NCBI GenBank assembly: GCA_964106915.2 | Contig: OZ066919.1 | Origin: Podarcis gaigeae | Taxonomy: Eukaryota | DNA: 64,000 nucleotides | Reading direction: 5' to 3' (one strand) | Part shown: in pieces, positions 1 to 61,035 of the stretch | Layout of the letters: each line of letters opens with the position of its first letter | How positions within the stretch are numbered: the stretch's first letter is position 1 | Notes under the pieces: model-generated | The model's input: the letters and a program-made list of their open reading frames with translations, nothing else | What the model was told of the DNA's origin: nothing | The model's database searches: none | Program-made: the position numbers and the translations under genes

Positions 1-2646
1 AAAAGGGTTCCTAGTTGAAATATTAATTTGTACTCTTTTTGTATCAAGGCTCTTCATACATCAACAGATCTAAAAGGTAGTTTTTTTAAAGTCCACAGGA
101 TGAAAAAACTCAGGTCATTTTCAGTATGGGCCTCTTGCTGGAAATGCGGGACTAACGGGGCGTGTAGGCAAGCATTGCATATCTTGGACCTTTGCTCATA
201 AATTCCAGTCCTGATTGCACAGGACCTACATATAAAAGCCCGCAAGCACAACAGATACAGTACACACAATTTTTTGTAGAACAATTTGTAAACTGTTGCA
301 AGACAATCTTTCGCCCATTTATTGTGTTGGTAAATGATTTCACGGGCAAAGCAAATCTGCAACATGTGCAATGACTGCATCTATAATGCCCTTTCAGCGT
401 AGTGTGTGGGTCGTCATTATGGTATTCAAGTAGATCAGTGTGGGAAAGAATGTCCCTAAGCGATCTAGTATGCCTTTTGCCTAAAATGGGCACATTTTCA
501 CAGCCTGGAATATGGGAAATGATGTGCCAATGTCTTGTAATCACTCTTTCAATAGAAGAAGATAAATAGTTGTACTCTATAGAACCAAAAATCCTGTCCT
601 GATTGTTTTTGGGTTTCGGTACCAACAATTCCTGCCTAGAAGTTCTTTTAGCCCTTTCAAAGGCCGTTTGAATTATTTCCTCCAGATAGCCTCTATCTCT
701 TAATGAAGAGGAAAGGGATGCAGCATTTTTTTAAAAAATCAGTATCAAGGGAAGAACTTCTTTTAAGTCTAATAAATTGGCTGAATGGGAGACTTTTTTA
801 ATTGGACTGGATGGTTAGAATGATAATGAAGTAAATAATTCCTATCAGTAGGTTTGCAAAATGGGCGTAAATTAATGACATGTTCATTATGTTCAGTAAC
901 AAAAAGTAATTCAACTTCTAGAAAGGAAATGCTAACCTCGCTCTTTTTACCAGTAAATCTTAAAGCTGTATCACATTGATTTAACCAAATGTCAAATTCC
1001 AAGAATATATCCTGGTCCAAAACAAAAATAAAATCAATGTAACGATCATCAATGTAACGATAATAAGCCAATAAATGCTTCCTAAATGGATTCGAATCAC
1101 TCAAAATATATTCTAAATCAAAATAACGCATATAGACACAGGCGAGGGATGGTGCACAATGGGCTCCCATCGCCATGCCCCTGTATTGAAAATAAAACTG
1201 TTCTTTAAAGCGGAAGAAATTATTTTCAAGAATAAGGTCCAACAGATTGAATAACACATGTACCAGCGAATCATTTTGATTATTGTTTTATTGTCATGCA
1301 GTATTTGTTCAACCAGGGAATGTAACCTATTCAATGAAACATTAGTATACAAAGCTTCAACATCCCAAGTAGCTAATATAGCACCCTGGGGAACAGTGAG
1401 ACCTTCTATGACAGAAATAAAATGTTGAGTATCCTTAATGTAGGATGGGGTTCTTATTGCCAAAGGATTAAGGATTGAATCCACAAATTGCCCTGCAGGC
1501 TCAAGGAGGGACCCAGACCCAGAGATAATCGGGTGGCCGGGAGGGGGGAAAATCACTTTATGAATTTTGGGGAGGATATTAAAATTTGGAACATGACTAT
1601 GTTCTGGTACTAAGAATTCAGCTAACTGGTCAGATATTAAATCAAGGGCAGACGCCTCTTGGACTACGAATAAAAGCTTACGTCTGACCTCATTAGTTGG
1701 ATCATAATTCACGGGTTGATAATAATTGTGATTACTCAACTGTTGAAAGGTCTCCTATTCATACACTTGTTTATCTAAAACTACAACGGCCCCTCACTTA
1801 TCTGCTTGTTTAATAACGAGATGTTTTTTCTCAGAAATCTCTTTAAGAATATTGTATTCTTCCCTAGACAAATTGAAGGATTTATACTGTTTCTTCCACT
1901 CGATTTTCTCTATATCTCTTAACACTAAGGACTGATATGTTTGGATATAATGATTGTGTGTTATAGGATTGAACCAGGACTTAATTCTCAATGGAGTAGG
2001 CTGGTATATCTCGCCTGCAAAAAAGTCTCTAAGCTTTTATGAACTTCTACGCGAGTTTGAAAGGCAGAATAGGCAGGTGTGGGCACAAAACCCAATCCTT
2101 CCTCAAGTATATTTCCACTCTAATTTACTTGTCAGAAGACAAATTAACAACTAATGATTCTGTTGGAATCCTTTCCTCCTGGATGGGCGTTTCCCCGGCT
2201 CCTGTGAAAACCCAGATAACGCCTGCTGGACCTAAGCTGCAATTCCCTATCTCTCTCCGTCTTGCTGTCACTGTGGCTGGAAGCACTGATAGAATCATAA
2301 TCACTAGGGAAATCACGTGGTCTAGTGCTGTCGTGTCTTCTGGGTTGGATTTTACCCTTTTTATCATCATTAATCCACCAGCATATGTTGTTATGGGCAT
2401 AATCATTTTTATCCCTATTAAATTTATTAACTTTTCAATTTCTTAATCTCCTCAGTGTAAGTGTTTAACTCCTTCTTTGTGATCTGCACCAACTTGTCCA
2501 TTTTCTGTGATATTAACTGAGTTTTTAAATTTACCATACAAATTTCCTTATCAACAATCTCTATCATGTGTATATTGTTCCAAGCACCTGTAGTGTATTT
2601 AAATGTTTGGTATCACCAGTTTCTACATTTGCTGTGCCTGTGAGTA

Positions 2647-3660: not shown

Positions 3661-4927
3661 TTGGCTTCAGATGATCATTGGGCTTTGTGCTTCCAGCCAA
3701 CGACTACTTGAGGAACGCTTTTTAGGAACCGCTCCTACGTTTCATTTTTAATTAACTTCCACACCGTTTCATTGTATGGCTCTGGTTCTAATATTAAAAT
3801 AAAATTCTTTCTATCCATTTTCTCCACAACATGCATAATTTTTATAAACTTTTATCATGCTTTCCCACCCCAATAATTTCCTTTCTTTTCTAAACCAAAA
3901 AGTTCCAAGTACATTAGTTTTCCCCGTGGGAATCATGTTCCTTGGCCATGGTGGTGGTCCTCTTCTGCATCTTTCCCAGGTTCACGGTATCCTTTTGAGA
4001 TGGGTCAACCAGGAATGTATTCTCAGCTACGACCACACAATTGATTATGGAAGGCATTACAGACTCAAACTGGTACCCAGATGAAACAGTCTAGCAAGCT
4101 GAAGGCTTCATATTACATGTATAGGGTAGGAAGGCAGAGGCCCAAATTGGCACCCATGTTTTCACCATATACGTTACGGTCACCAGACAAGCATTTTTGG
4201 CTGCTTTCAAGGAAGGGCGGTGGACACATCAAATAAATAAATAAATAACCCCAAGCCTGGAATTTGTCTTTTTCACAGCAGTTGCATCAACATTTTCTTT
4301 GAGAGGTGCAGCATGGCCTCCCAATTTCTTTCCTGGTTAATCACTACCAGTTCAGGCCTCATCAGTGTACAGAAGTTGAAATTATTTTCCCCCACTTACT
4401 CCTATTGAACTGCTGTACGCCTGACTCAAATTACTTAAATACTTGCAATCAATCATTTACTGTATTTGGCTAAAAGCCGTTACAAATCCAGTTACAAAAC
4501 CAGCAAATCCAATAAAACCTATTAAAAAGCTCCAGAAATAAGCAATAATTTACAATAAATCAAATACAGATTAGCTGGGAAGATGGTGGCACAGCGGGGA
4601 TCTATATAAAGAGGCTCGGCGTTGCTCCTGCAAAAAGGTTTTATCTGCTATTTTAAAAAGTTTTTTTAAAAACACTCTAACTTTTTAAGCTTCTCAACTT
4701 GCAATTTGGATGCCTTTCTGTGTTTTGGGACCCTGTTTTAATTGTTTGAACTGTTTATTTTATCTTCTTACCGTCCCCTGGTCTGGAGGAAATTTCTTTC
4801 TAAGGAGCCTTTTCATTATTACCTCCCCTTACCTGCTTGCTCACAGATTAGCTTTCTGCTTCACTGGGCTATTTGCTTGGCATCATTAAATACTATCATA
4901 AATTATCTATATGATTGTATTATGACT

Positions 4928-5165
4928 AAACAAAAAAAATTCCTTCCAGTAGCACCTTAAAGACCAACTAAGTCAGTTCTTGGTATGAGCTTTCGTGTGC
5001 ATGCACACTTCTTCAGATACGAAGAATCTGAAGAAGTATCTGAAGAAGTGTGCATGCACACGAAAGCTCATACCAAGAACTGACTTAGTTGGTCTTTAAG
5101 GTGCTACTGGAAGGAATTTTTTTTGTTTTGACTATGGCAGACCAACACGGCTACCTATCTGTAAC
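4928..5165. mobile_element. Short palindromic Penelope-type pLTR element
   Basis: Perfect 93-bp inverted repeat (4928-5020 / 5036-5128) with a 15-nt spacer; 12-bp TSD TGTATTATGACT at 4916-4927 and 5166-5177. Confidence 0.85.
5036..5073 (+). ncRNA. Minimal type I hammerhead ribozyme motif (mirror copy on the - strand at 4983-5020)
   Basis: GTAT-CTGAAGA-A-GTGTG CATG CACAC-GAAA-GC-TC-ATAC: stem I GTAT/ATAC, stem II GTGTG/CACAC, palindromic AGCT in place of stem III. Confidence 0.7.
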
Positions 5166-5326
5166 TGTATTATGACTGTATTATATGCTACCAGTCACTC
5201 CAGATCCTTGCGGACTCTGCAGCTTATATCCTGCATCTATCCTCTTTCCTGTTCTTTGACCAGTTACTGATTCATATGAGGAGAACTTTTGCCACTATGG
5301 TGGGGGATATTTGTGAGTTCAAAGTA

Positions 5327-5689
5327 CCGTATTTTTTGCCCTATAGAACGCACTTTTTCCCCTCCAAAAATGAAGGGGAAATGTGTGTGCGTCCTATGGG
5401 GCGAATGCAGGCTTTCGCTGAAGCCTGGAGAGCGAGAGGGGTCCGTGCGCACAGACCCCTCTCGCTTTCCAGGCTTCGCGCAGCTCTCCGCAAGGCACGG
5501 GAGCCCGGTGCTGGGCTTCCACGGCTTGCGGAGAGTTGCCTGCTCTGGGGGCTGGGGTCGGGGGAAGCTAGGGCTTCCCCCGCCCCAGCCCCGCACCTGG
5601 GGGAAAAATAATTTTCCCCCCTTTATTTCCCCCCCAAAAAACTAGTTGCGCCTTATGGGACAGTGCGTCCTATAGGGCGAAAAATACAG
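5327..5689. mobile_element. Tc1/mariner-type MITE
   Basis: TA TSD; TIRs CCGTATTTTTTGCCCTATAGAACGCAC / GTGCGTCCTATAGGGCGAAAAATACAG. Confidence 0.88.
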
Positions 5690-9024: not shown

Positions 9025-9343
9025 TACTGGGCAAAAAAAATCTTGCATTGCAGGGGGTTGGCCTACATGACCCTCGTGGTCACATTCAGCTCCACAGTTC
9101 TGTGATTCTGTGAAGTGACAAAGAAATGTATAGCTTTCCTTGGGAGATGGCACCAGAGATTATCAACTTCTACCCCCACCCTTTTCCTCCAGCCCTGGAA
9201 ACCAGAGTCCCAGGGAATCCTAAGGCTCGGGATTTGCTTTTACCTTGTTCTCTCCACTTCGTGGTGATGGTGACACAATGTGCTATTATATGCATTGTTA
9301 TATTAGTGTTACATTATATTATATTAGCGTAGCAGTAACTTCT

Positions 9344-9700
9344 GGGACGCAGGTGGCGCTGTGGGTTAAAGCCTCAGCGCCTAGGACTTGCCGATCGAAA
9401 GGTCGGCGGTTTGTATCCCTGCGGCGGGGTGCGCTCCCGCTGCTCGGTCCCAGCGCCTGCCATCCTAGCAGTTCGAAAGCACCTCCAAGTAGATAAATAG
9501 GGACCGCTTACCAGTGGGAAGGTAAACGGCGTTTCCGTGTGCGGCTCTGGCTCGCCAGAGCAGCGATGTCACGCTGGCCACGTGACCCGGAAGTGTCTCC
9601 GGACAGCGCTGGCCCCTGGCCTCTTGAGTGAGATGGGCGCACAACCCCAGAGTCTGTCAAGACTGGCCTGTACGGGCAGGGGTACCTTTACCTTTACCTT
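9344..9700 (+). mobile_element. Sauria SINE, full length
   Basis: GGGACGCAGGTGGCGCTGTGGGTTAAA head, (ACCTTT)n tail, TSD TAACTTCT(G) at 9336 and 9701. Confidence 0.92.
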
Positions 9701-10357
9701 TAACTTCTGTGGATGCTGTTTGGAAATACAGCAAGCCAGCAACTTACATGCATGATTTAACTTGTGCACATTCAGCTTTATGTGCTTGGCAAAAAATAAA
9801 ATTAAAATTAAAAAATGGGGGCAGAAAGGGGGCTGGCATATGGGGAGAAAAGTCTTTGGCACTCCCACCTGCCATTGCATCCAGTCTGCTTTGGCTATAT
9901 GTGATTTTGGCATTATCCCCTGCAACCTACCCCCGCGTAAGTTGCAGGCTTACAGTATTACTTTTTTAGATAGGCCTGAATATCTCTTCATTCAGTATTA
10001 TAGTGCCAAGAGCATAGAATACAATCTCTTAATAGTTGCTAGATCTTAATTTGGGAATCTGAAATATACCCTTCTGAAGCATTGTGATAAATTATTATGT
10101 ACTAGAAGAACTATGTTTTCACCCTGAAATCCCACATAGTTGCTCACTTTGATGCAAATGGTAAGGGGAAAAAACACCTTGTCATAAAATTGGACCCAGT
10201 TAGGAGAAGCTGGGACATCTAGACAAAAGGTGTCCTTGAATCTCAGCCCCACCAGTCAGTTGGGAGGGATGAGAGTGCTGACTTGTTTGAGGAAGTGCAA
10301 GCTTTTCTGCTTTTAACGGAAATTCAATGTGTGTTGTGCAGTTGTTGCTTTCAATAG

Positions 10358-16150: not shown

Positions 16151-19100
16151 GTAAGGAGGCCGGAGGGGGGAGGGGGCAGCCTTGACAGCCTCAGTCTGTG
16201 TAAACAGGACATTTCGCACAAGTTTTGAAATATATACCGTAAATGATCTGCCTGGAAGGCTTTGACAAAATGATGATGCTCTAAGGAATGCAGGAGTTAA
16301 CAAAAAGCAGCAGGTTTACATTTTCTCTAGACTCACCTGCATCCTACTTGAAAATGGAAAACAGGCCATTCTGAAAAGTCATTTTCCGTACAACAACCAC
16401 ACCAGTTTTTTGTATGTTTTTTTATGTCACACCTTCCAAAACAATTACCACCAGTTCCTTTCCAACTTTGGGGAGAGTATTTGTGGATTTTCATACCTGG
16501 AGGCTGCCAGTACAAAGGAACCAATAGCTCAAGGGGTGCCTCATGAAAGCACTCGTGAAAATCTTTCTACATGACAAAAAGAGGAATATTGATTTCTGGC
16601 TGCATTTCCCATATTTTAGCTGCACCAATAGCCTGTATCCAGCAAACATTTTCACAGAAGTGTTTTGCAGGCAGAATCCACAAGTAGGAGACAAAGTTCC
16701 TACTGCTCCTGCTCAGAGATCCTGACTGCAGAATCCATAGGTGGACTTGGGCTTCCTTCACAACATTGTGATCCTGTATTCCTTCCTGCACACAAATCCC
16801 TTAAGGGAGAAAACGTTCTGCATCCAAACTGACCTTAGACCAGGCACTGAGTGATGGGGGAAAGTGGATTGACAAAATGGAGCCACTAGCAGAGGAACCG
16901 GAGAACATGTTTGCTTTTTTGTTTGACTGATCATTAAATTTATTATGCCCTCATTTTCTTTATAAAATAAACTCAAATTAGCTATCAAAAAAGTTCAAAA
17001 AATTAATAAAACACATTAAAACCTGGACAAATTTCTTAGATCAGTTTCCTATGATAAAACCAAGAGCAGGATAAACCAATATTGCACAAAAACAGGGGGG
17101 GGGTGGATCTTTCAAAAAATGAATTGAGAGTGGGTTTTGTTAAAGGGCAAGAATACAAATCTAGTTTGAAAAAATACATTTGCCCTTTGGACCTGAACTC
17201 GAGCTGTGTCCAGAAATGTTGACCTTGCATCAGCTTAATCAAAGACCTTTCAGTTAAACATTAACCTCCTGATAAGAGTCAGTGTGCAGGGTGAGATTAT
17301 AACACAGGAATCTCTTGATCTTAGGGTTAGGATACGGGATGGTAAGGAGGTCCATGAGGAGGCAAAGGAACCAAGAATGTTTATCAGGCGGCACCCGGGT
17401 CCAAGTTGCAGCAGAGGTGACAATGTTAAGGGGCCTCACAGCTCAAAGCCATTCCTCAAAGTGGGGGTGGGGCAGAAGGTCACATCTCATTTTTTAAATC
17501 TTAAAATATTTCTGGGGGAAAAACCAGTAGTTTATAAAGTAAAAACAACAGCAATAAAAATTGCACAATGCACTCGTCACAGAAAGAAGAATGAAAGCCA
17601 GTGTGGTGCAGTGGTTAGACCGTTGGACTAGGGCCTGGGAGATCAGGGGTTCAAATCCCAACCACTGGGTGACCTTAGGCCAGTCACTCTCAACCAGTCA
17701 CCTCACAAGGTGGTTGTGCTAATAAAATGGACGGGGGAAGAACCACCCGCATCACCTTGAACTCCTTGGAGGAAAAGTGGGATGAACATAATAAAAATAA
17801 TAGCAGCATCAACAAAGCAGGAAATAATACAGAAGCAAAAAACAGAGATGCTGCTTCTCAGAACTTCTCAAAGGTTTTTACCTGCCTTTGGAAAGACAGA
17901 GAATCCTACAAGAGCCTTTCTCAGAAGAACGGTACAATAAAACATAAAAATAGAAATGCTGGAAGTTTTGAAGAATGATGAACACATTTAACCAAAATGT
18001 TTTGAGCTGGTGTCTAAATTTCACAGCAGAAAGAGTTCCAGAGCTGGCTCGCCAGGGAGAAGGTCTTCTGATACGTCACCTAGGAGCAGGATGTTAGAGG
18101 CTCTCCCTAGCATTGGTTTTCAGAGGGTGTGGCAGGAGAGGAGGGCAAGGGTGACCAGAAGATTGAAGAACAATCCATTTTGGGAATGATCCACATTCTT
18201 ATGTAGCTGCATTGTTTGATGCTTTCTGGCTGCCCCATGATCATATGATAAAATAGTTGTGTTCTGTGTTATAAATCAAGCACTGCTAGGAGTTGTTTCT
18301 TTTTGTTTTCAATGCTTTTCTTTCTTATCAATTAAAAAAAATGGTGTGGCATGAGCAAATTTTTATTCTGAAAGTGTGGCCCAGAGAAAAAAGTTTGAGA
18401 AGCACTGCTCACTAGGATGCAATTGTAAGCAGAGCTGGGGAGGGAGCTCAGTTGGAAGGAATCATAGAATCATAGAATCATAGAGTTGGAAGAGACCACA
18501 AGGGCCATCGAGTCCAACCCCTTGCCAAGCAGGAAACACCATCAGAGCACTCCTGACATATGGTTGTCAAGCCTCTGCTTAAAGACCTCCAAAGAAGGAG
18601 ACTCCACCACACTCCTTGGCAGCAAATTCCACTCTCGAACAGCTCTTACTGTCAGGAAGTTCTTCCTAATGTTAGGTGGAATCTTCTTTCTTGTAGTTTG
18701 GATCCATTGCTCCGTGTCCGCTTCTCTGGAGCAGCAGAAAACAACTTTTCTCCCTCCTCTATGTGACATCCTTTTATATATTTGAACATGGCTATCATAT
18801 CACCCCTTAACCTCCTCTTCTTCAGGCTAAACATGCCCAGCTCCCTTAGCCGTTCCTCATAAGGCATCGTTTCCAGGCCTTTGACCATTTTGGTTGCCCT
18901 TCTCTGGACACGTTCCAGTTTGTCAGTGTCCTTCTTGAACTGTGGTGCCCAGAACTGGACACAGTACTCCAGGTGAGGTCTGACCAGAGCAGAATACAGT
19001 GGCACTATTACTTCCCTTGATCTAGATGCTATACTCCTATTGATGCAGCCCAGAATTGCATTGGCTTTTTTAGCTGCCGCGTCACACTGTTGGCTCATGT

Positions 19101-22100
19101 CAAGTTTGTGGTCAACCAAGACTCCTAGATCCTTTTCACATGTACTGCTCTCAAGCCAGGTGTCACCCATCTTGTATTTGCCCTTCCCATTTTTTTTGCC
19201 CATGTGTTTACATTTCTCCCTGTTAAAATTCATCTTGTTTGTTTTGGCCCAGTTCTCTAATCTTTCACTTCGCCTAAGACTTCGCCTGTTCTCCTGGAAT
19301 TCTCAAAGATGTCTGCCAGTGGTTCTGAGATCACATCTGCCAGTTCTTTTAATACTCTTGGATGCAGTTCATCTGGCCCTGGAGACTTGAATACATCTAG
19401 ACTAGCCAAGTATTCTTGTACTATCTCCTTAGTTATTCTGGGCTGTGTTTCCTCTGCTGAATCATTTGCTCCAAATTCTTCAGGTCGGGCATTGTTTTCT
19501 TTATCGGAGCAGACTGAGGCAAAGAAGGCATTGAGGAGTTCAGCCCTTTCTGTGTCCCCTGTTTGCGTTTCACCATCTTCTTCTCTGAGTGACCCCACTG
19601 TTTCTTTTGTTCTTCCTTTTGCTACGAACATACCCATAAAAGCCTTTTTTGTTGCTTTTAACCTCTCTAGCAAGCCTGAGTTCATTCTGTGCTTTAGCTT
19701 TTCTGACTTTGTGTCTACACGTGCTGGCTATTTGTTTGAATTCCTCTTTGGTGGTTCCCCCCTTTTCCATTTTTTGTACACATCCTTTTTTAATCTTAAC
19801 TCAGTTAAAAGTTCTTTAGATAGCCACCCTGGCTTCTTTAGGCACCTTCCATGTTTCCGTCTCATTGGTATTGCCTGAAGTTGTGCTTTTACTATCTCCC
19901 TCTTAACAAACTCCCAGCCATCATGAACTCCCTTTCCTTTTAGTACTACTGTCCATGGGATCTCACCCAGCACTTCCCTAGGTTTTATGAAGTCGGCTTT
20001 CTTAAAGTCAAGAAATTGAGTCCTAGTATGCTTGGCTGCTCCTTTCTGCTGTATAGTGAACTTCAGGAGATGCACTGTTTGGGGCCCAGGGCTTAAATCC
20101 GACCCCCTGGCCAAGTATCCCTTTGAACCTCTGCGGAGAGGTCAGTGCAGCTGCTTTGTGATGATCCACCATGGAGACAGTTCTGAGGAAAGCAATGCCA
20201 TGGGGAGATCTGTTTGGTTACATGCATCTTGTCTGAGCAGCCAGAGATCCTCTTCCTTTGTAGACTGTAAGGAAACTCTCCTCTCTGCTTGCCTTGCAGT
20301 TTCTCCAAAGGCTCTGTGCACCACCAGGCAAATCCTTCCTCCTCCTCCTCCTGGCCCAATGATGTGGGCATCCTTGCTCTGGAGGTGTACTTCCCTTCCC
20401 AGTATGTGGATCAGGTTGAGCTGGAGAAGTATGATGGGGTGGAGGCTGGAAAATACACTGTGGGCCTGGGGCAGAAGCAGATGGGCTTCTGTGCGGCCCA
20501 CGAGGACATCAACTCCTTGTGCCTGACAGTCGTGCAGCGTCTGGTAGAGCGAAGCCGCCTGCCCTGGGAGTCCATCGGCCGACTAGAGGTTGGCACAGAG
20601 ACCATCATTGACAAATCCAAAGCTGTCAAGACAGTTCTGATGCAGCTCTTTGAAGATTCAGGAAACACAGATGTTGAAGGCATCGACACCACCAATGCCT
20701 GCTATGGAGGAACAGCCTCCCTCTTCAATGCAGCTGACTGGATTGAGTCCAGCTCCTGGGATGGTAAGTGATGGTGGTCTCAGTGGCACCCCCTCAGACC
20801 CCCACCTGGAAGGTGTCCTCTCCAAAAACAAGCATCCAGGCACGTCCACAGGGCCGACTTGGCCCAGTCATATATCCTTCCATGCCTGCCTACACCCCAT
20901 CTCTAAGGCATGGATGTAAGACACAGCCGGTCTCAGAATAACAGGTGGTGTAACTTGAAGCCTCGGGGCCACAAACACTTGCCTGAGGTCTCACACCAGG
21001 AGACAGTTTGGAAATGTTTAGGAGGCTGGGCTGTGTGGGAATCACCCTCAAATTTCCCTCCTTTGGAATTTTCAGAAGTTGCTGTGAGTAAAACATTTTG
21101 TGACGTTTCTTGGCTCCACTCAGCAAATGATACTTCCTATTCCTGGAGCTTTTTGTAGAGAAGGCGTGCTGCTTAAGTGACTCTCCCAGCCAGGTTTTGT
21201 CCCATTTTTTGCTATAGGGTAGCATTTTGCAATTTTATACTTCTGCCATCAGGAGACATTGGGGCTGCCCATTCTCCTCACGTTAAAGAAAGCTTGTGGC
21301 GGTTCACTTTTGTGCTCCTGGAGGAGAAGGAATTTGGTGGGTGCCATGTAGACTCTATAGATTCTCTTGCGGCACCACAGTTCCCAGAGTCTCTCTGAGG
21401 GACACAAGGAGCGAAGCAGACCAGGGGAGAGCTAGCCGGGGGGGGGGAGAAATAGCTAGAGAAACACCTGTTACAGCCGGGATGGGGGGCTTCCAGCCCA
21501 TCAGGCTAATTAGTCCACCATTTGGCCTGCAAGGCTATTTTGGCCAAGCCACGCCCACCCTACACCTGATGACAGGTATGCCCTCCCATCAGGTGGCCTA
21601 CCTGCTAGATCCTCACCCCTGTATTATGGGAATAAAGAGGTTAAAACTGCTCCCTGTCTAAAAAAAAATTATTTGCTAGACAAACCTCAAGGAGACACAA
21701 GGCCATTGTTTCTAGCAGTACAGAAGAATCTAGCTGCTAAGTTCTGTCACAAGCATATGGGAAAGGAACAAAGCAAGAAGTGTTTGCCTCTGCATGCCAA
21801 CTGTGCAGAGATGCAACCCTTCTCCTCCATATTGCAGAGTCTTCCCAGAGACAGCTGAGTGAGAGTTGCAGATTGTTCAAGCCGAGTGGTTCGTTCTCAC
21901 ATATGAGTCATAGGTCTTCTAACAAAAATAGGTCTCCTGACCAGAGATTTGGAAGGAAAACAATTTAAAGAGAGATAGAGAGCTGAGAGAGCCAGGCAAT
22001 TATCTGTATAAACTTTGCAAGCATATAGTAGGATTATTATTATGGTTTCTGCAAAGAGAAGGTTGTAAGGAAAGAATTATACTTTGAGAGTGTATGTATC

Positions 22101-26900: not shown

Positions 26901-29900
26901 ATGCTTTCTTCTACCCCCGAGGCAGCTGGGATCTCCAAGCAGTGCACCCTCGAAGACTTCCAGTTCATGATCTTCCACACACCATTCTGCAAGCTGGTGC
27001 AGAAGTCTCTGGCGCGGGTGTTGCTGAACGACTTCCTGGCCTCCCGCAACCCTGATGTCGAGTGTGGGGTCTACAAGGGGCTGAAGGACTTCAGGTCAGT
27101 GGAGTGTAGCTTCCTTTATTAGTGGCTTTGTATGGGACCCGGGTGGCGCTGTGGTCTAAACCACAGAGCCTAGGGTTTGCCGATCGGAAGGTCGGCGGTT
27201 TGAATCCCTGTGACGGGGTGAGCTCCCGTTGCTCGGTCCCAGCTCCTGCCAACCTAGCAGTTCGAAAGCACGTCAAAGTGCAAGTAGATAAATAGGTACT
27301 GCTCTGGTAGGAAGGTAAATGACATTTCCGTGCACTGCTCTGGTTCGCCAGAAGCGGCTTAATCATGCTGGCCACATGACCCAGAAAAACTGTGTCGGCT
27401 CCCTTGGCCAGTAAAGCAAGATGAGCGCCGCAACCCCAGATTTGTTCACAACTGGACTTAACTGTCAGGGGTCCTCTACCTTTACCTTTTTTAAAGACAT
27501 CACCCAAGAACTGGAGAAGATAGTGGGACAGGGGGCAAGCTTGTTCTTAGAAGTTCTTCAGGACAGGGATGGGCAGAAGATGGATCTAGATCTAGATCCT
27601 TGCATGATCTACAGTGGACTAGCTCCAATGTAAAAATGAAAGCCCCTCTTCCCATTAAAATGATTAGGCTTTCTTATCTGAAGTAACTCAGATGTACAGG
27701 ACTTGTGTATGCAGGTTGTCCTAGGATCCAGCTCATGCCACATGGTAGATCAATGGCTCTGTCCTCTGAGAGAGGGTGTGGTGTCTGGATCTGGTCTCCC
27801 CTGCCCCTCCTCCCTCCATCTTTTGCACCTGCCTCTGGTTGGCTGACCTTGCACTTCCAGGAAAACAAAGGAGACCTTGCAAGTCATCTGCTCACATCTG
27901 CCTTGGGACTTAGAGGGGGCTGGCATTCTTTTCTTTTAGAGATGATAACCCTTAGCTCTCATCCCTGACTTGAAATTCACCTGAAGTTCCTTTATCTCCA
28001 TTAGCTTGTATTCACCCATTGCCAAACTCACCTGCCGGCTGCTGAGGCAGAGTCTTGTCTTTTGCTGATCTTCCCATGCGAAGCCCCTCATTGGCCAGCA
28101 GCAAAGCCTCCAGTGCACCTATTACATCCTCAACCTCCTTCATATTTGCCAATAGAAAAAAAATTATATTCTTTGGGAAAGCTTATTTATCTGTTTTATT
28201 TGTTTAGATATTTATAAATTACTTTTCTCAAAGATTGAAAACGGATCAAAAGGCAAAACCCAGTATTAATAATTAATACTGTAAAACTAACAATTAACCT
28301 GAGCAAACCTCTGAAGCAACTGAAAGTCAAGTGATTTTTTAAAAATGCTTTATGTCTTTTATGCAGTGGGGTCTTTCTCAGCAAAGTACTTTGAGCCTGA
28401 TCAGAGCGGGGGGAGCAAGAAAGGCTTCTGCTTCCAGCAAGGCTAGGAGGACAACTCCAGAAAATGTTTATTTCTCTGCCAGCTTTGAATTTAACTGAAC
28501 TTGCCACCTCTACCTCTATGGATAAAGTTTTAGGCTCTTTTAAAATGTTAATTTATTAAAATGTGCTCATGGAAATTAAGCCAAGCAGAGAAAGCTCAGT
28601 GCACCCCATCCCTCTGTGTATGAGAGCACATTCCCTGGCCTCACGCCCCCCCCCCCCCCGAGAAAAGGGTATTCCACAGTTGGGGCCAGGACTGACTGCC
28701 CACCTTCCCTTTTAGTAACGTGAAGTTGGAAGAAACCTACTCCAGCAAGGAGGTGGACCGAGCTTTCCAGAAGGCCAGCCAGGAGCTGTTCCGCCAGAAG
28801 ACACAGCCCTCTCTCTTCCTCTCTGCTCGCAATGGAAACATGTACACTCCCTCAGTGTATGGCTGCCTCGCATCTCTCCTGGCCCAGTAAGCCACCCCTG
28901 CTCTTTCCAATAATGGATTCTTCCCACTCCAAATCCAGGGCAGGTGAAGAGGACACAGAAATGGCAAAAATAGTTGTGTTTCATAAGGTTTGGCCAGAAA
29001 GCAAGGGCTGCAAACACACCATACATTTAAAGACTCTTTGGGAGCTGTATTTCACGCCTTGTAAAGTACAATTCCCAGGATTCTTGGTATGGGTGAAGCC
29101 ATGATTCTCTGATGATTAAAAATCCTCTTAGCCAAGGTGATTAATTCTGCTAAATAAGGGCTGAAGTTGTGGCCCCCACTCCCTCCCTTGCAGCCCTACT
29201 TTTATATTCACATACCCAGGAAAACATTTCCTGTTTCTGCTCATTATATTTTGGGGGTTTTGCATAGTACCACATTTGTTGGTTTTAACCTGTGACAGTT
29301 GCTGGCTGCCTTTTGAGCTTTCAAGCAGAAGGTGGCATTTTAAAACTTTAAACCTGGGGTGGCTCATCGGCAGCTGGATCTGGCCTCCCGCTTCTCTCCA
29401 GCTCCTGGGCTGCTGGCAGGGAGAGGAGACTGTGGCTGTGTAGAAATCTCTGACAGTAGCGCCAAGGAGCAACGGAAGTTGCTGACCCCCTGCCACCGGC
29501 TGGACATCTTGCCCACCTGCTGTACACTGCAACACAACCTTCCAAAACATGTTTCTGTCATGTCCTCTGTCACACTATCCCTGCCAGGATGAGCCAGGAA
29601 GGTTGCCTCAAGGCAGCCTGTTTATTTGAACATTCATCCTGATTCGTTGGCAGGGTTATACAGTGTTGCACTTCCCTGTGCATTTTCTCATCACTTGCCT
29701 TATCACAAATAGGCCAGTTTGGGTGTGGGTGGGTGTGGAATAGGCTTGTTGTGGAAGAACACAAAATCAGCTTGAATTGTGGCAGCTGAATTTGCAAGTA
29801 TGTGATTGCACCTCACCCCAAAACTGCAACCATCTGGAAAAGTCTTTGCAAGGTGATGATTTTTGCAGGGGCCTCAATGTTTGCCCTTGCCTGATGTGAT

Positions 29901-45020: not shown

Positions 45021-45372
45021 GGGGACACAGGTGGCGCTGTGGGTTAAAGCCTCAGCGCCTAGGACTTGCCGATAGGTCGGTGGTTCGAATCCCTGCGGCG
45101 CTCCCGCTGCTCGGTCCCAGCGCCTGCCAACCTAGCAGTTCGAAAGCACCCCGGGTGCAAGTAGATAAATAGGGACCGCTTACCAGCGGGAAGGTAAACG
45201 GCGTTTCCATGTGCGGCTCTGGCTCGCCAGAGCAGCGATGTCACGCTGGCCACGTGACCCGGAAGTGTCTCCGGACAGCGCTGGCCCCTGGCCTCTTAAG
45301 TGAGATGGGCGCACAACCCCAGAGTCTGTCAAGACTGGCCCGTACGGGCAGGGGTACCTTTACCTTTACCTT
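45021..45372 (+). mobile_element. Sauria SINE, near full length
   Basis: Highly similar to 9344-9700; TSD TATTTAGGGAGT(GG) at 45009 and 45373. Confidence 0.93.
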
Positions 45373-45472
45373 TATTTAGGGAGTGGTAGAAGAAGCAAGA
45401 GAAATCAGGACTTGCCTCCTCCTTGCAGCCTTGACTTGCCCTTACTCTGCCCATGTGGTCCAGTTGCCCCAA

Positions 45473-45974: not shown

Positions 45975-46237
45975 AAAAGGTAAAGGTAAAGGTACCCCTG
46001 CCCGTACGGGCCAGTCTTGACAGACTCTGGGGTTGTGCGCCCATCTCACTCAAGAGGCCAGGGGCCAGCGCTGTCCGGAGACACTTCCGGGTCACGTGGC
46101 CAGCGTGACAAAGCTGCATCTGGCGAGCCAGAGCCGCACACGGAAACACCGTTTACCTTCCTGCTGGTAAGCGGTCCCTATTTATCTACTTGCACCCGGA
46201 GGTGCTTTCGAACTGCTAGGTTGGCAGGCTCTGGGCA
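45975..46237 (-). mobile_element. Sauria SINE, 5'-truncated
   Basis: (AAAGGT)n on the + strand; TSD AGGCCATTTTA at 45964-45974 and 46238-46248. Confidence 0.92.
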
Positions 46238-56900: not shown

Positions 56901-57503
56901 ACAGGCAATTTTCCCAAAGAAGGGAAGTGGCCAGAGGGTCATGGGAGGCCTCTGATGTGGGAGGTCCTGTTGCCCATTCCTGGGAATGTGCTTGCGCCTT
57001 ATATGTAAGAAGGGAATACAGGATGTGAGCTGGGAAGGGTGATGTCATTCTGGCATTCTGTCATTGCCACATGTCCGTTGGTGTCTTCCATAGAAGGCTA
57101 ATGGAGGCTTGGTTGGTATGCAGGGACCTCGTCGTCAGGAAGGGACTCTCTGTTGTCCTTGCTACACTTGCTTTGGTTTCTGCAGCGATTGAGGTGATGG
57201 CTCTGCCACTAGCTGGCCATAGGACGGCATCTGTGTGGTGCTGATGTTAGTCCTGACATAATGGCTTGTAGCAGAAGGATAGGCTTGGTCTTCCTGATAT
57301 TTGGAAAAGAGGGCAGCTCTGCACAAGAATTTCAGAGGATGTGAGAAAGATAAAAAGGAAAGCCTCTTTGTACACAATAAAGCCCTCAATGATTCTTCAT
57401 TTTCCTATTACCTCTGTGCTTTCCTGTAACATCTAATATTTTTAAAGTATTGAAATACAAAATACACATAATTCCAGATTCTGCAGCATAACAAAATAAA
57501 ATT

Positions 57504-57904
57504 AGTTACAGGTAGGTAGCTGTGTTGGTTTGTCATAGTCAAAACAAAGTAAAAAAAAATCCTTCCAGTAGCACCTTAAAGGTAAAGGGACCCCTGACCA
57601 TTAGGTCCAGTCGTGACCGACTCTGGGGTTGTGGTGCTCATCTTGCTTTACTGGCCGAGGGAGCCGGCGTACAGCTTCCGGGTCATATGGCCAGCATGAC
57701 TAAGCCGCTTCTGGCGAACCAGAGCAGCACACGGAAATGCCATTTACCTTCCCGTCGGAGTGGTACCTATTTATCTACTTGCACTTTGACGTGCTTTCGA
57801 ATTGCTAGGTTGGCAGGTATCTGAAGAAGTGTGCATGCACACGAAAGCTCATACCAATAACAAACTTAGTTGGTCTCGAAGGAAGGAATTTTTAAATTTT
57901 GTTT
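57504..57904. mobile_element. Second palindromic Penelope-type pLTR element, disrupted by a Sauria SINE
   Basis: Reverse orientation of 4928-5165; TSD CAAAATAAAATT at 57492-57503 and 57905-57916; hammerhead motif at 57816-57855. Confidence 0.85.
57577..57817 (-). mobile_element. Sauria SINE, 5'-truncated, nested
   Basis: TAAAGGTAAAGGGACCCCTGAC...TGCTAGGTTGGCAGG; same subfamily as 27134-27488. Confidence 0.9.
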
Positions 57905-58382
57905 CAAAATAAAATTGTGAAACTGCATAAGTCCACATTTTCCTATTTGTGTAATGTATCACAGTTGCAGTGGGTGTGCTTTATGGAGCTATCCCATAAC
58001 AGTCAGCCTTCCTGACTTCTTTGCTCATGCCAACTCCGTAGTTTAATTTCCTCTGCAAGAAGGAGTCCTTCTGCCCTCCGTCACCTTACGATAAGGGAAG
58101 CCTGGCCATTGGGTTGCACAGAGTCATCTAGAAAAGGGTGAAGTATTCAGATCATGATCTAAGGGCTTCTCCCTGCCCTGCTTCACAAAATATGTCCCTA
58201 TTGATTGCAACCCGACCTCATTGGAGCATCTCTCCCCAGGGATGACTGCATTTCTCCTGCTTCCTTGGCAGCTAACTGCTCTTCTGTGAAAAACAGGGAA
58301 TTTGAGCGTCTAATGGAGCTAAATTGATTCTGCAGAAGGTGCCATCCTGACTTTCTCATCTGGCTGCTGACCTTTTGGCAGC

Positions 58383-60171
58383 TGAAATATACACGGAGTC
58401 AAGAGTGGATTTCATGCTCAGCTCGTAGTGGTGAGGAGGAATGGCGTTTCCCCCAGAATGTCTGCTTTATATACATTATTTACACAATGGGCCCCACGTG
58501 ATTGGCTAATTCCGGGATTCTCCTGTAGGCCAATCAGGTTGCAGATTAACTTCCACCTGGAGCTGGATTGGGTGGCTCCTGTGGACCAATCAGACTGCTG
58601 CATTCTGGATCCTATTGTTCAGACTGCTGCATTTTGGATCCTATTGAACTCCTCCCCTCTAAGTTCCAGTCCTGCCCAGGAGGTTGCATTCATAGTCCTC
58701 AAGGTACGCCGGCTGCCTACGTGTGTGTTGCGGCCTGGGGTGTTCCCTGGTCAGGGGTTTGGGTTCTGGCTCGTTTTCTGAGGATGCTGGCTGCAGTGGG
58801 GCTGTTTGGTCTGGCGCAACCGGCTCGCTCAGTCTTGGCTCTGGTTCCGGTGTCCATTTCTGGAAGTCCCAGAGGGTGAATGGGGCCGGCCTGAGTTTGG
58901 GACCCCAAGTAGGGCACAGTTTTCTTAAGGTCCTTGCCAAGATTATGGATAGAGTTGAACCTGTGTCAAGCTCCATGCGGCATGGGCCCCCCTCTATCTG
59001 TACCTCTACATGAATTTTCTCTATGTTGGGGTGGGGCAACTGGTATACCTGGCAGTCCGTGATCTCTGTGAGTTGCCTTGGTGCGTTGGGCCCTGGGACC
59101 TGGGCTCTTGGATCGGTCATCCGATGCCTGGCGACACACCTGAGCAATGTGTCCCAGTTTTCTGCACTGCCTGCACTCTGAGTTGCGGAAACAGCAGGTC
59201 CTCCTCTCGTGACTCTCCCTGCAGCTTGTGCAGTTCCCTCCTTCTTGATGAGGCAGCTGTGGTCTGTGCGCTGCTTGAGTGCGCCGCAGAACTCGGTGCA
59301 CCTCCTCCCTGTTGGATCCTGAGTCGTCGGCGAAGTTTTTGTGGTGGACCCTCGATTGGGGTTCAGGCTCGGCTGTGCCTCTTGCATCGTCCTCTTGGCA
59401 GCTTCAGTTGCCAGGGCCTCCTCTAGAGCAACCTGGAACGTTAGGTCCTTCTTAGCGTAGAGGCTCGTTGCAGCTTCTCATCCTTCAGGCCACCGACGAG
59501 GCGGTGACGAAGCATGTTCTCCAACTCTGTGAAGTTGCAGAACCGGGCAGCTTGGTGGAGAGAGGTCACAAACCCAGTTATGGTTTCCCAGGGGCTTGCC
59601 GCTTTGCGTAGAAGGCATTTCAACAAGCCACCACTGAGGGCTGTGGCGAGAAGTGCCCCTTCAGCCATTCCATTATTGTTTTGTAAGGAACAGTAGCGAC
59701 ATCTTCAGGCACAAGGAGAGCCCAGGCGATTTTGAATGTCTCCTCTCCTCAGACGCTTAAGAATATCGCCCTCTTTTTGGCGTCTTCTTCGGTGGTGACC
59801 CCTTTGGCTTCTAGGAGGAAGGTGAAATGGGAGGTGTACGCTTCCCAGTCTCCGGATGCTGGGTTGAACAGCGAGAAGCTGCTGTCGGTTGCCATGCTGA
59901 ATTCCTTGGGGCCCAGAGCTGAAGCCTGGATACACGGTGCGAGGCAGCGATGCGGCAGGTGGCGGTGCTGCAGTGCTGTGTGTGGCGGTCAGCTCAGCGG
60001 GATCCCACTTTCATCGCCAGTGAAATATATTCAGAGTCGCAAAGTGATTTCATGCTCTTTATTCAGCTCATAGTGGTGAGGAGGGAATGGAGTTTCCCCC
60101 AGAATGTCTGCTTTATATACATTATTTACATAATGGGCCCCACGTGATTGGCTGATTCTGGGATTCTCCTG
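58383..60171 (-). mobile_element. Internally deleted Ty3/Gypsy LTR retrotransposon (gag and protease remnants)
   Basis: LTR copies at 58383-58648 and 60021-60171 (partial); PBS-like TGGCGATGAAAG next to 60020; PPT AGAGGGGAGGAG at 58649-58660; zinc knuckles CTSCRESHERRTC / CRQCRKLGHIAQVC; protease MELDTGSTLSII. Confidence 0.9.
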
Positions 60172-61035
60172 GCGTCATGCTGTGGCGGCCCGGCCCACGG
60201 AGGATCTCCGCAGGAGTGATCCAAACCATGCCCAGTAAGCCTTGCCAACCCCTGGTCTATGGTAATCACTAACGAACTTAATTTGAAACTGAGAAGTTAT
60301 GCTTGTCCAAGGTAGCACTATTTAGGCTGCAATCGGATACCCACTTACTTGTGAGTAAGTCCCACTGAGCTTGATGGGGCTTACTTCTAGGCAGACATGT
60401 AAAGTTTGGCAGTAGTAGAAATTGCATTAGCAAAATTTAGATAAAGATGAATTTCCAAAGATGCCTCTGTTCCAGTTCTCAAATAGTTCCAGAAAGTGAT
60501 AATTGGATAGTTTTGCCCTGAAACATGAATTCTCAACAGTAAGTCCTGTTTCTGGTGAGATTCCAGCGGCAGAGGGTTCTGGACACATTTTCCTTGACAT
60601 GAGGGCGTTTGTGGGTCAGCCCTGAATGCAGGTGAGAAGCAGACAACACCCACTCCATGAACGTTTCTGGCAATCCGAATGCTTTCTGTCTCTCTTAGCT
60701 GCTGGTTTGGAATCTCTGGCGCAAGAGGCTGTTCCTCTTCATGTGCCATTTTCCAGAAGTTTCCCCCAAGCAGGACTGCTCCCCATCACCATCCCAGGGG
60801 CAAAATTAGTCTTCAAAAGCAGCCTATTATCTCGAAGGGAAGGAACTGGAGCAACAAAATAGCCAATGAACTATAACGGCCGTAATGTTTGAACACTTAG
60901 GATAAAATGTGAGGGGATTTCTTGAATTAATGTGATTTGTGAGCAAACTTTGCAAGAAGGGAAATTTTGCTGTGTTGGTGCTTCCATGAGCTTGAACACT
61001 GTTCATTTACATTTGCCAATGTGTTTTCTGTGCAG

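Follow-up and report, generated by a model that had tools for sequence, protein, structure and literature searches.

What does a nearly palindromic 238-bp insert with a hammerhead motif on each strand, found in a 64,000-nt stretch of lizard DNA (here called the window), record: a ribozyme-bearing hairpin that was mobilized as such, or the manner in which a simpler RNA was written into the genome? The first-pass annotation had proposed the former, a young palindromic retroposon that moves non-autonomously with the help of Penelope proteins. The best explanation of the locus as a whole, to which we assign a probability of about 0.65, is the insertion of the pseudo-LTR (pLTR) end of a Penelope-like element (PLE), with the palindrome as a by-product of integration. 

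Architecture of the insert and of its second copy

A repeat finder delimited the arms of the insert as 93-nt segments, 100% complementary and 15 nt apart (Table 1), as the first-pass annotation had described them. Its account of the spacer also held, as 10 nt of it repeat the arm start exactly (a match reached by 13 of the 63,237 other 15-mers of the window), and the insert has no coding capacity, with stops that close all six frames within a few codons. The target-site duplication (TSD) was likewise confirmed, matching at 12 of 12 positions, with the alternative of 11 bp plus one shared T, given that a second copy indicates that T5166 can be an element base. An abutting 11- or 12-mer was found for 5 of the 63,580 238-bp intervals of the window, all five being offsets of this same insert. 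The target is a degenerate AT-rich repeat with an 11-bp period, so that the TSD, taken alone, is slightly weaker evidence; the flanks are 70 to 83% AT, compared with 52% for the window. Two of the initial descriptors required trimming. The palindrome accounts for only 201 of the 238 bp, and the right end alone carries an unpaired tail of 37 to 38 bp (5129 to 5165 or 5166). The label "young" is compatible with arms identical at 93 of 93 sites, but it is loose, as the 95% bound on their divergence is ~3.2% and inverted repeats can be homogenized after insertion.

Table 1. Coordinates of the two copies of the element and of the PLE-like relic in the 64-kb window
Feature	Position	Strand	Basis
Decayed RT plus GIY-YIG (PLE-like) ORF with frameshifts and stops; link to the element unproven	1..2590	-	
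Copy 1, left TSD	4916..4927 (or from 4917, 11 bp)	+	Direct-repeat match
Copy 1, inverted arm, 93 bp: tail-less pLTR piece with hammerhead at 4983-5020 on the minus strand	4928..5020	-	
Copy 1, junction filler, 15 nt: re-copied arm-start pieces	5021..5035	+	10-nt exact match to 5038-5047
Copy 1, minimal type I hammerhead	5036..5073	+	Descriptor features from PMC4209133
Copy 1, direct arm, 93 bp, same as inverted arm	5036..5128	+	
Copy 1, tail without partner, 37-38 bp (PLE-type 3' extension); final base common with TSD	5129..5166	+	Same tail in copy 2, 57504-57541
Copy 1, right TSD	5166..5177	+	
Copy 2, left TSD, 12 bp	57492..57503	+	
Copy 2, tail (57504-57541) and distal tailed arm	57504..57581	-	68/73 aligned columns as in copy 1, plus indels
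Copy 2, 5'-truncated SINE piece replacing center and proximal tailed arm	57577..57817	-	
Copy 2, tail-less inverted arm with identical 38-nt hammerhead (57817-57854)	57817..57904	+	79/84 aligned columns as in copy 1, plus indels
Copy 2, right TSD, 12 bp	57905..57916	+	

A second copy of the element lies at 57504 to 57904 in the opposite orientation and has a 12-bp TSD of its own. It has the same two outer ends and the same inner end as copy 1: the tailed side runs to the counterpart of T5166, the arm lacking the tail goes no further than the tail boundary, and the inner end again coincides with the base that opens hammerhead stem I, where all three visible inner arm ends of the two copies are located. 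The tail of 37 to 38 bp is confined to one arm in both cases. The two TSDs differ in sequence, as do the flanks, and the centers of the copies are unrelated. Two independent insertions thus share the same three ends, which points to fixed biochemical boundaries and argues against random truncation.

In copy 2, a SINE piece of ~240 bp, truncated at its 5' end, takes the place of the center and of ~58 bp of the tailed arm. It agrees with the SINE at 27245 to 27484 in 212 of 243 columns, shares the sense of the tailed arm, and meets the other arm exactly at the start of stem I. This piece is without a TSD of its own, and clear TSDs were seen by eye in three of the four other window copies of the same SINE. 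We lean to a template jump, in which the RT would have left the PLE RNA and continued on the 3' tail of a SINE RNA where the two share a short stretch. The alternative is a SINE that inserted later and deleted a break-prone hairpin tip. The deletion that ends exactly at the arm boundary and the missing TSD tip the balance slightly toward the template jump, on a single case. Apart from copy 2, this SINE, which we take to be the one named Sauria/Squam1, is found at 9343 to 9702, 27133 to 27484, 45021 to 45374, and 45976 to 46235. The copies at 45.0 to 46.2 kb form an inverted pair ~600 bp apart with arms 96 to 98% complementary, and the 5' truncation of the copy at 46 kb falls no more than ~10 nt from that of the piece in copy 2. 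A tail motif for the SINE is not given in the available portions of PMC10702118 and PMC3899998.

The hammerhead motif

The plus-strand motif of copy 1 comprises stem I (5036-39/5070-73), a core from 5040, an extra A at 5047, stem II (5048-52/5057-61) and GAAA at 5062-65, with a self-complementary stretch (5065-68) taking the place of stem III. The CUGANGA and GAAA cores, U16.1-H17, and stems I and II are all present, and the cut that the first-pass annotation had predicted after C5069 agrees with standard core numbering as read from the sequence. A minimal hammerhead on each strand was borne out by a descriptor search, which returned three matches in the 64 kb (5040 and 57821 on the plus strand and 5016 on the minus strand), whereas 30 simulated sequences gave a mean of 0.07 matches of any geometry and none of the minimal geometry. 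The 38-nt motif has three exact occurrences in the window and none in any of 100 shuffles. With hammerheads at three places in 64 kb, the element is probably one of many in the genome.

The extra A had been viewed at first as a departure from the canonical core, but it is instead a published hallmark of PLE hammerheads. According to Cervera and de la Pena (2014; PMC4209133), PLE minimal hammerheads recurrently have an extra nucleotide lying after position 9 and before 10.1, a G10.1-C11.1 pair, and a palindromic 15.2-16.2; A5047, G5048-C5061, and G5066/C5067 are the corresponding features here. That work also reports PLE-type minimal motifs in turtle and snakes, as well as opposite-strand motif pairs 100 to 700 bp apart. 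The window motif and those published there are alike in their 4-bp stem I, 5-bp stem II, and self-complementary 15.1-16.1 without helix III. The closest motif listed, from the painted turtle Chrysemys picta bellii (Fig. S3 of PMC4209133), has the same core and G/C at 15.2/16.2 but differs, in a comparison by eye, by one compensatory pair in each of stems I and II, by its loop II, and by a U at position 17, where the lizard motif has C. It carries no mark of a PLE-ORF link in that source, and the exact window motif is absent from the rows of Fig. S3 examined.

Conservation of the hammerhead over its surroundings is suggestive only: 0 of 38 positions are substituted between copies, compared with 10 of 119 elsewhere (one-sided Fisher test, P = 0.057) or P = 0.044 against the rest of the same arm, a borderline contrast drawn from one pair of copies. 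The three local motifs are identical and hence offer no covariation. In a single arm plus tail, stems I and II have predicted pair probabilities of 0.58 to 0.67 and 0.95 to 0.96, respectively. The folding energy of this RNA is not unusual (z = 0.80; 160 of 200 shuffles do equally well), so that thermodynamics alone gives the ribozyme no support. Rfam models had no match at gathering threshold in the 64-kb window, and no hammerhead family was among the 16 matches at E ≤ 10 in 4850 to 5250. An exact search of bacterial and archaeal genomes with a 30-nt core stretch gave no match, as expected for a reptile repeat.

The ribozyme at the copy 1 locus is probably an inert passenger. The full copy 1 transcript is computed to fold into a 93-bp duplex (-173.7 kcal/mol), in which the pair probabilities of stems I and II fall to 0.0; the masking of the ribozyme by read-through transcription proposed in the first pass is thus supported. 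Dimer cleavage by minimal hammerheads is described in PMC4209133 and in the review PMC6765202, and the schistosome motif assayed in the former was without cleavage as a monomer and weakly active as a dimer. No dimer is possible in cis at this locus because the two motifs lie on opposite strands: the one sense copy present in each transcript is bound by its own antisense. Together, stem II and its loop (5048-5061) form a perfect 14-nt palindrome, through which, along with swapped stems I, two RNAs are predicted to pair with -30.6 kcal/mol. On this modeling, the palindrome is a possible second dimerization handle beside that in place of stem III.

Origin of the palindrome

The element is very probably a very short pLTR-end PLE insertion in the inverted-pair-plus-tail form. 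Four of the five PLE features tested were found, i.e., the inverted pair, the tail, a short TSD in AT-rich DNA, and a hammerhead in the terminal repeat, and both copies have a head-to-head inverted 5'-truncated copy beside a direct pLTR. A typical PLE insertion as described by Craig et al. (PMC8557442) carries at its 5' end a 5'-truncated copy in inverted orientation and bears a 30- to 40-bp tail at one end; Arkhipova et al. (PMC3846280) report inverted pLTRs, a 31-bp tail, TSDs of 8 to 10 bp, and unrelated DNA captured between solo pLTRs in rotifer PLEs; and the tail measures 34 to 37 bp in Drosophila virilis (Schostak et al.; PMC2377424). D. virilis Penelope, A. vaga Pen2/Pen3, and Naiad thus resemble the lizard element in the head-to-head inverted copy, the 30- to 40-bp tail at one end, the TSD of variable length, and the unrelated sequence between pLTRs. 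The lizard copies differ from them in that no ORF sequence is left in an insert of 238 bp and in that both stop at the same base, the start of stem I. The layout is therefore one already known for PLEs and no new kind of structure. Literature searches retrieved no description of this lizard family, which repeat databases or subscription papers may cover. Mobilization by a PLE RT/GIY-YIG protein, as the first-pass annotation had proposed, is likely; its view of the palindrome as the unit that is re-inserted is disfavored for the reasons given below.

The closest biochemical precedent is Poseidon_Ac (PAc) of Anolis carolinensis. As reported by Frangieh et al. (PMC11167929), the anole Poseidon protein, a predicted dimer, prefers AT-rich DNA, cleaves and extends both strands, and starts reverse transcription at two internal sites that bound the tail. 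It uses uncleaved RNA, and its hammerhead cleaves only with the protein present; the later steps of PLE integration are described in that source as unvalidated. PAc and the lizard element would be alike as squamate PLEs with a hammerhead upstream of a tail bounded by two start sites, AT-rich targets, and an uncleaved template. They differ, by eye, in that the ORF of PAc begins within stem II and continues across the tail, where the lizard frames are closed.

By our estimate, with somewhat better than even odds, the palindrome arose by two-strand priming. A PLE RT/GIY-YIG protein bound to an RNA composed of hammerhead, pLTR, and tail would nick both strands of an AT-rich site 11 to 12 bp apart. 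One nick would prime RT at the distal start site, at the end of the tail, and the other at a proximal site 37 to 38 nt further in. Both cDNAs would traverse the uncleaved hammerhead and stop at the 5' strand of stem I, their 3' ends would be joined head to head with a 15-nt filler produced by re-copying of the template start, and gap filling would yield the TSD. Such filler may come from the PLE RT or from host end joining with templated insertions, sources that sequence cannot tell apart. Because both cDNAs extend as far as stem I, which lies 34 nt upstream of the cleavage site, the template would not have been the cleaved product. Cleavage and extension of both strands, a tail that corresponds to two start sites, and insertion without need of RNA cleavage are taken from the literature; we infer that these steps made copy 1. 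The stop at stem I may reflect a transcript start, a splice junction, or a structural stop; in D. virilis, the 5' end of helix I is where an intron ends (PMC4209133). The shared outer and inner ends, the one-sided tail, the AT-rich flanks, and the Poseidon biochemistry would all speak for two-strand priming. Against it count the small number of copies (two), the overwritten center of copy 2, the lack of an RT/GIY-YIG ORF tied to the pLTR, the origin of the two-start-site data in another family (Poseidon) and in vitro, and the identity of the copy 1 arms, which fits one template copied twice as well as it fits two priming events. Nothing in the literature searched attributes the head-to-head form to two-strand priming, and subscription papers may do so.

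An unlikely competitor retains the PLE origin and replaces the second priming event by fold-back: the cDNA, or an antisense template, would self-prime, and the endonuclease would resolve the hairpin off-center, leaving the tail. Self-priming was indeed proposed for the head-to-head PLE palindromes of rotifers (PMC3846280), and the tail has been attributed to endonuclease-mediated resolution (PMC8557442), but later biochemistry places the tail at two RT start sites, with extension on both strands (PMC11167929). The copy 1 arms agree even at sites where copy 2 differs, and the filler resembles repeated re-priming at a cDNA 3' end, both as expected of fold-back. However, if the cDNA folded back through stem I, a single hammerhead would remain in the loop and not the two full copies read from the sequence, and the arms of copy 2 differ in their overlap (22 of 28 columns, plus indels), though mostly within an A-rich tract.

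The first-pass view, in which the full palindrome serves as a non-autonomous ribozyme retroposon, transcribed and then put back into the genome as one unit by PLE proteins, is improbable. The occurrence in 64 kb of two copies with the same overall ends could be explained in this manner, but fixed RT start sites account for the shared ends equally well, the centers of the two copies are unrelated, and the ribozyme would be fully masked in the duplex transcript. Sequences of the pLTR suffice in trans to mobilize other DNA (PMC3846280), and tandem hammerhead repeats have been argued to be non-autonomous PLE derivatives (bioRxiv 10.64898/2026.07.22.740005). Non-LTR retrozymes, as presented in the available part of that preprint, resemble the lizard element as short noncoding PLE-related sequences with a type I hammerhead; they are head-to-tail tandem arrays whose neighboring ribozymes can dimerize, whereas the lizard element is head to head. 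With its two copies inverted on opposite strands and not arranged as at least two head-to-tail units, it is no retrozyme as defined. Finally, a MITE, a foldback DNA element, or a host hairpin-RNA gene with an incidental hammerhead look is hardly credible, despite the long perfect inverted repeat and the scores of Rfam miRNA models (MIR1222, 66 bits), given that at the right end the tail, and not the inverted repeat, forms the terminus, that the TSDs differ between copies, that all 16 Rfam matches around the element, to miRNA and other models, are weak, fall below gathering scores, and reflect hairpin shape, and that the motif fits a published ribozyme class with compensatory changes.

A bolder reading can be framed, tentatively and with more doubt than confidence: a dedicated RNA of ~130 nt, with its 5' end at the start of stem I and two RT start sites in its 3' part, would drive the family as a PLE-dependent reptile equivalent of a SINE. 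Its ribozyme fold would then serve as a boundary or dimerization signal and not as a cutter, a protein dimer would copy the RNA onto both target strands at once, and the telomerase-related RT would stutter at the template end, producing the filler. The RT might also jump to other RNAs, so that copy 2 would be a PLE-SINE chimera made in one event. If this were true, the copies would form an extensive natural archive of how the second half of PLE integration proceeds. The single locus carries little weight, being a transposon footprint with a known motif and layout. Its value is that of a test case, as miniature inserts keep all junctions within 240 bp: the nick stagger, the two start sites, the stem I stop, the filler, and possible template jumps. 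Hairpins this perfect might, if transcribed, also supply siRNA or editing pathways, as happens with inverted Penelope copies in flies, where siRNAs derive from inverted Penelope regions (PMC3681739). Processing of the lizard hairpin by ADAR or Dicer, as suggested in the first pass, is plausible by analogy.

The PLE-like relic and the genomic surroundings

The window also contains a PLE-like relic (Table 1), which leaves the window at its left edge within the C terminus, so that its 3' pLTR lies outside. Its RT frame matches 7 of 727 candidate proteins at 30 to 41% identity, six of them with RVT_1 and one also with GIY-YIG. The presence of a PLE-like ORF remnant in this genome is in keeping with a PLE origin of the insert. 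The relic has a Cys-rich linker that we take to be Neptune-like. A PDB search with the RT frame returned a single capsid match (E = 0.036), which was rejected as spurious. Within the window, where the 3' end of the relic is beyond the edge, relic and element share no DNA, and a relaxed scan allowing one core mismatch revealed no hammerhead near the relic. At the 5' end of the relic, a direct duplication of 77 to 93 bp (2578-2654/3149-3241; 77% identity) flanks a GC-rich insertion.

The first-pass annotation had further placed the element in an intron of an unidentified gene. This was not supported: among the frames of at least 52 aa between 3.1 and 20.8 kb, 143 of 158 were scanned together and 3 of the remaining 15 separately (35 frames of 45 to 51 aa were left out), and one sub-threshold Pfam (DUF) match was the sole result. 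An intergenic position is therefore at least as likely as an intronic one, short or noncoding exons aside. The host exons recognized encode the N-terminal domain of HMG-CoA synthase (20.3 to 20.8 kb, plus strand), a 2-hydroxyacid dehydrogenase (~37.7 kb, minus strand), and a centrosomin-motif protein (~63.5 kb, plus strand). Scans of the window for bacterial promoters and terminators and for tRNAs were uninformative.

Several other repeats accompany the element, and the SINE and LINE content of the window points to a squamate reptile. Just to its left, an 11-bp direct repeat (4566-4576/4844-4854), noticed by eye, brackets ~270 bp with a TATA-like box at ~4603, possibly another small insertion. 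To its right, a 29-bp nearly perfect palindrome without spacer (5420-5477) lies within a MITE-like repeat. Positions 18652 to 20141 on the minus strand, directly upstream of the first coding exon recognized for HMG-CoA synthase, hold what is presumably a CR1-like LINE fragment. An LTR-retroelement-like piece extends from 58386 to 60400, with what we assume to be a protease-like motif and with 88-nt direct repeats at 58438 and 60084 that are 95% identical.
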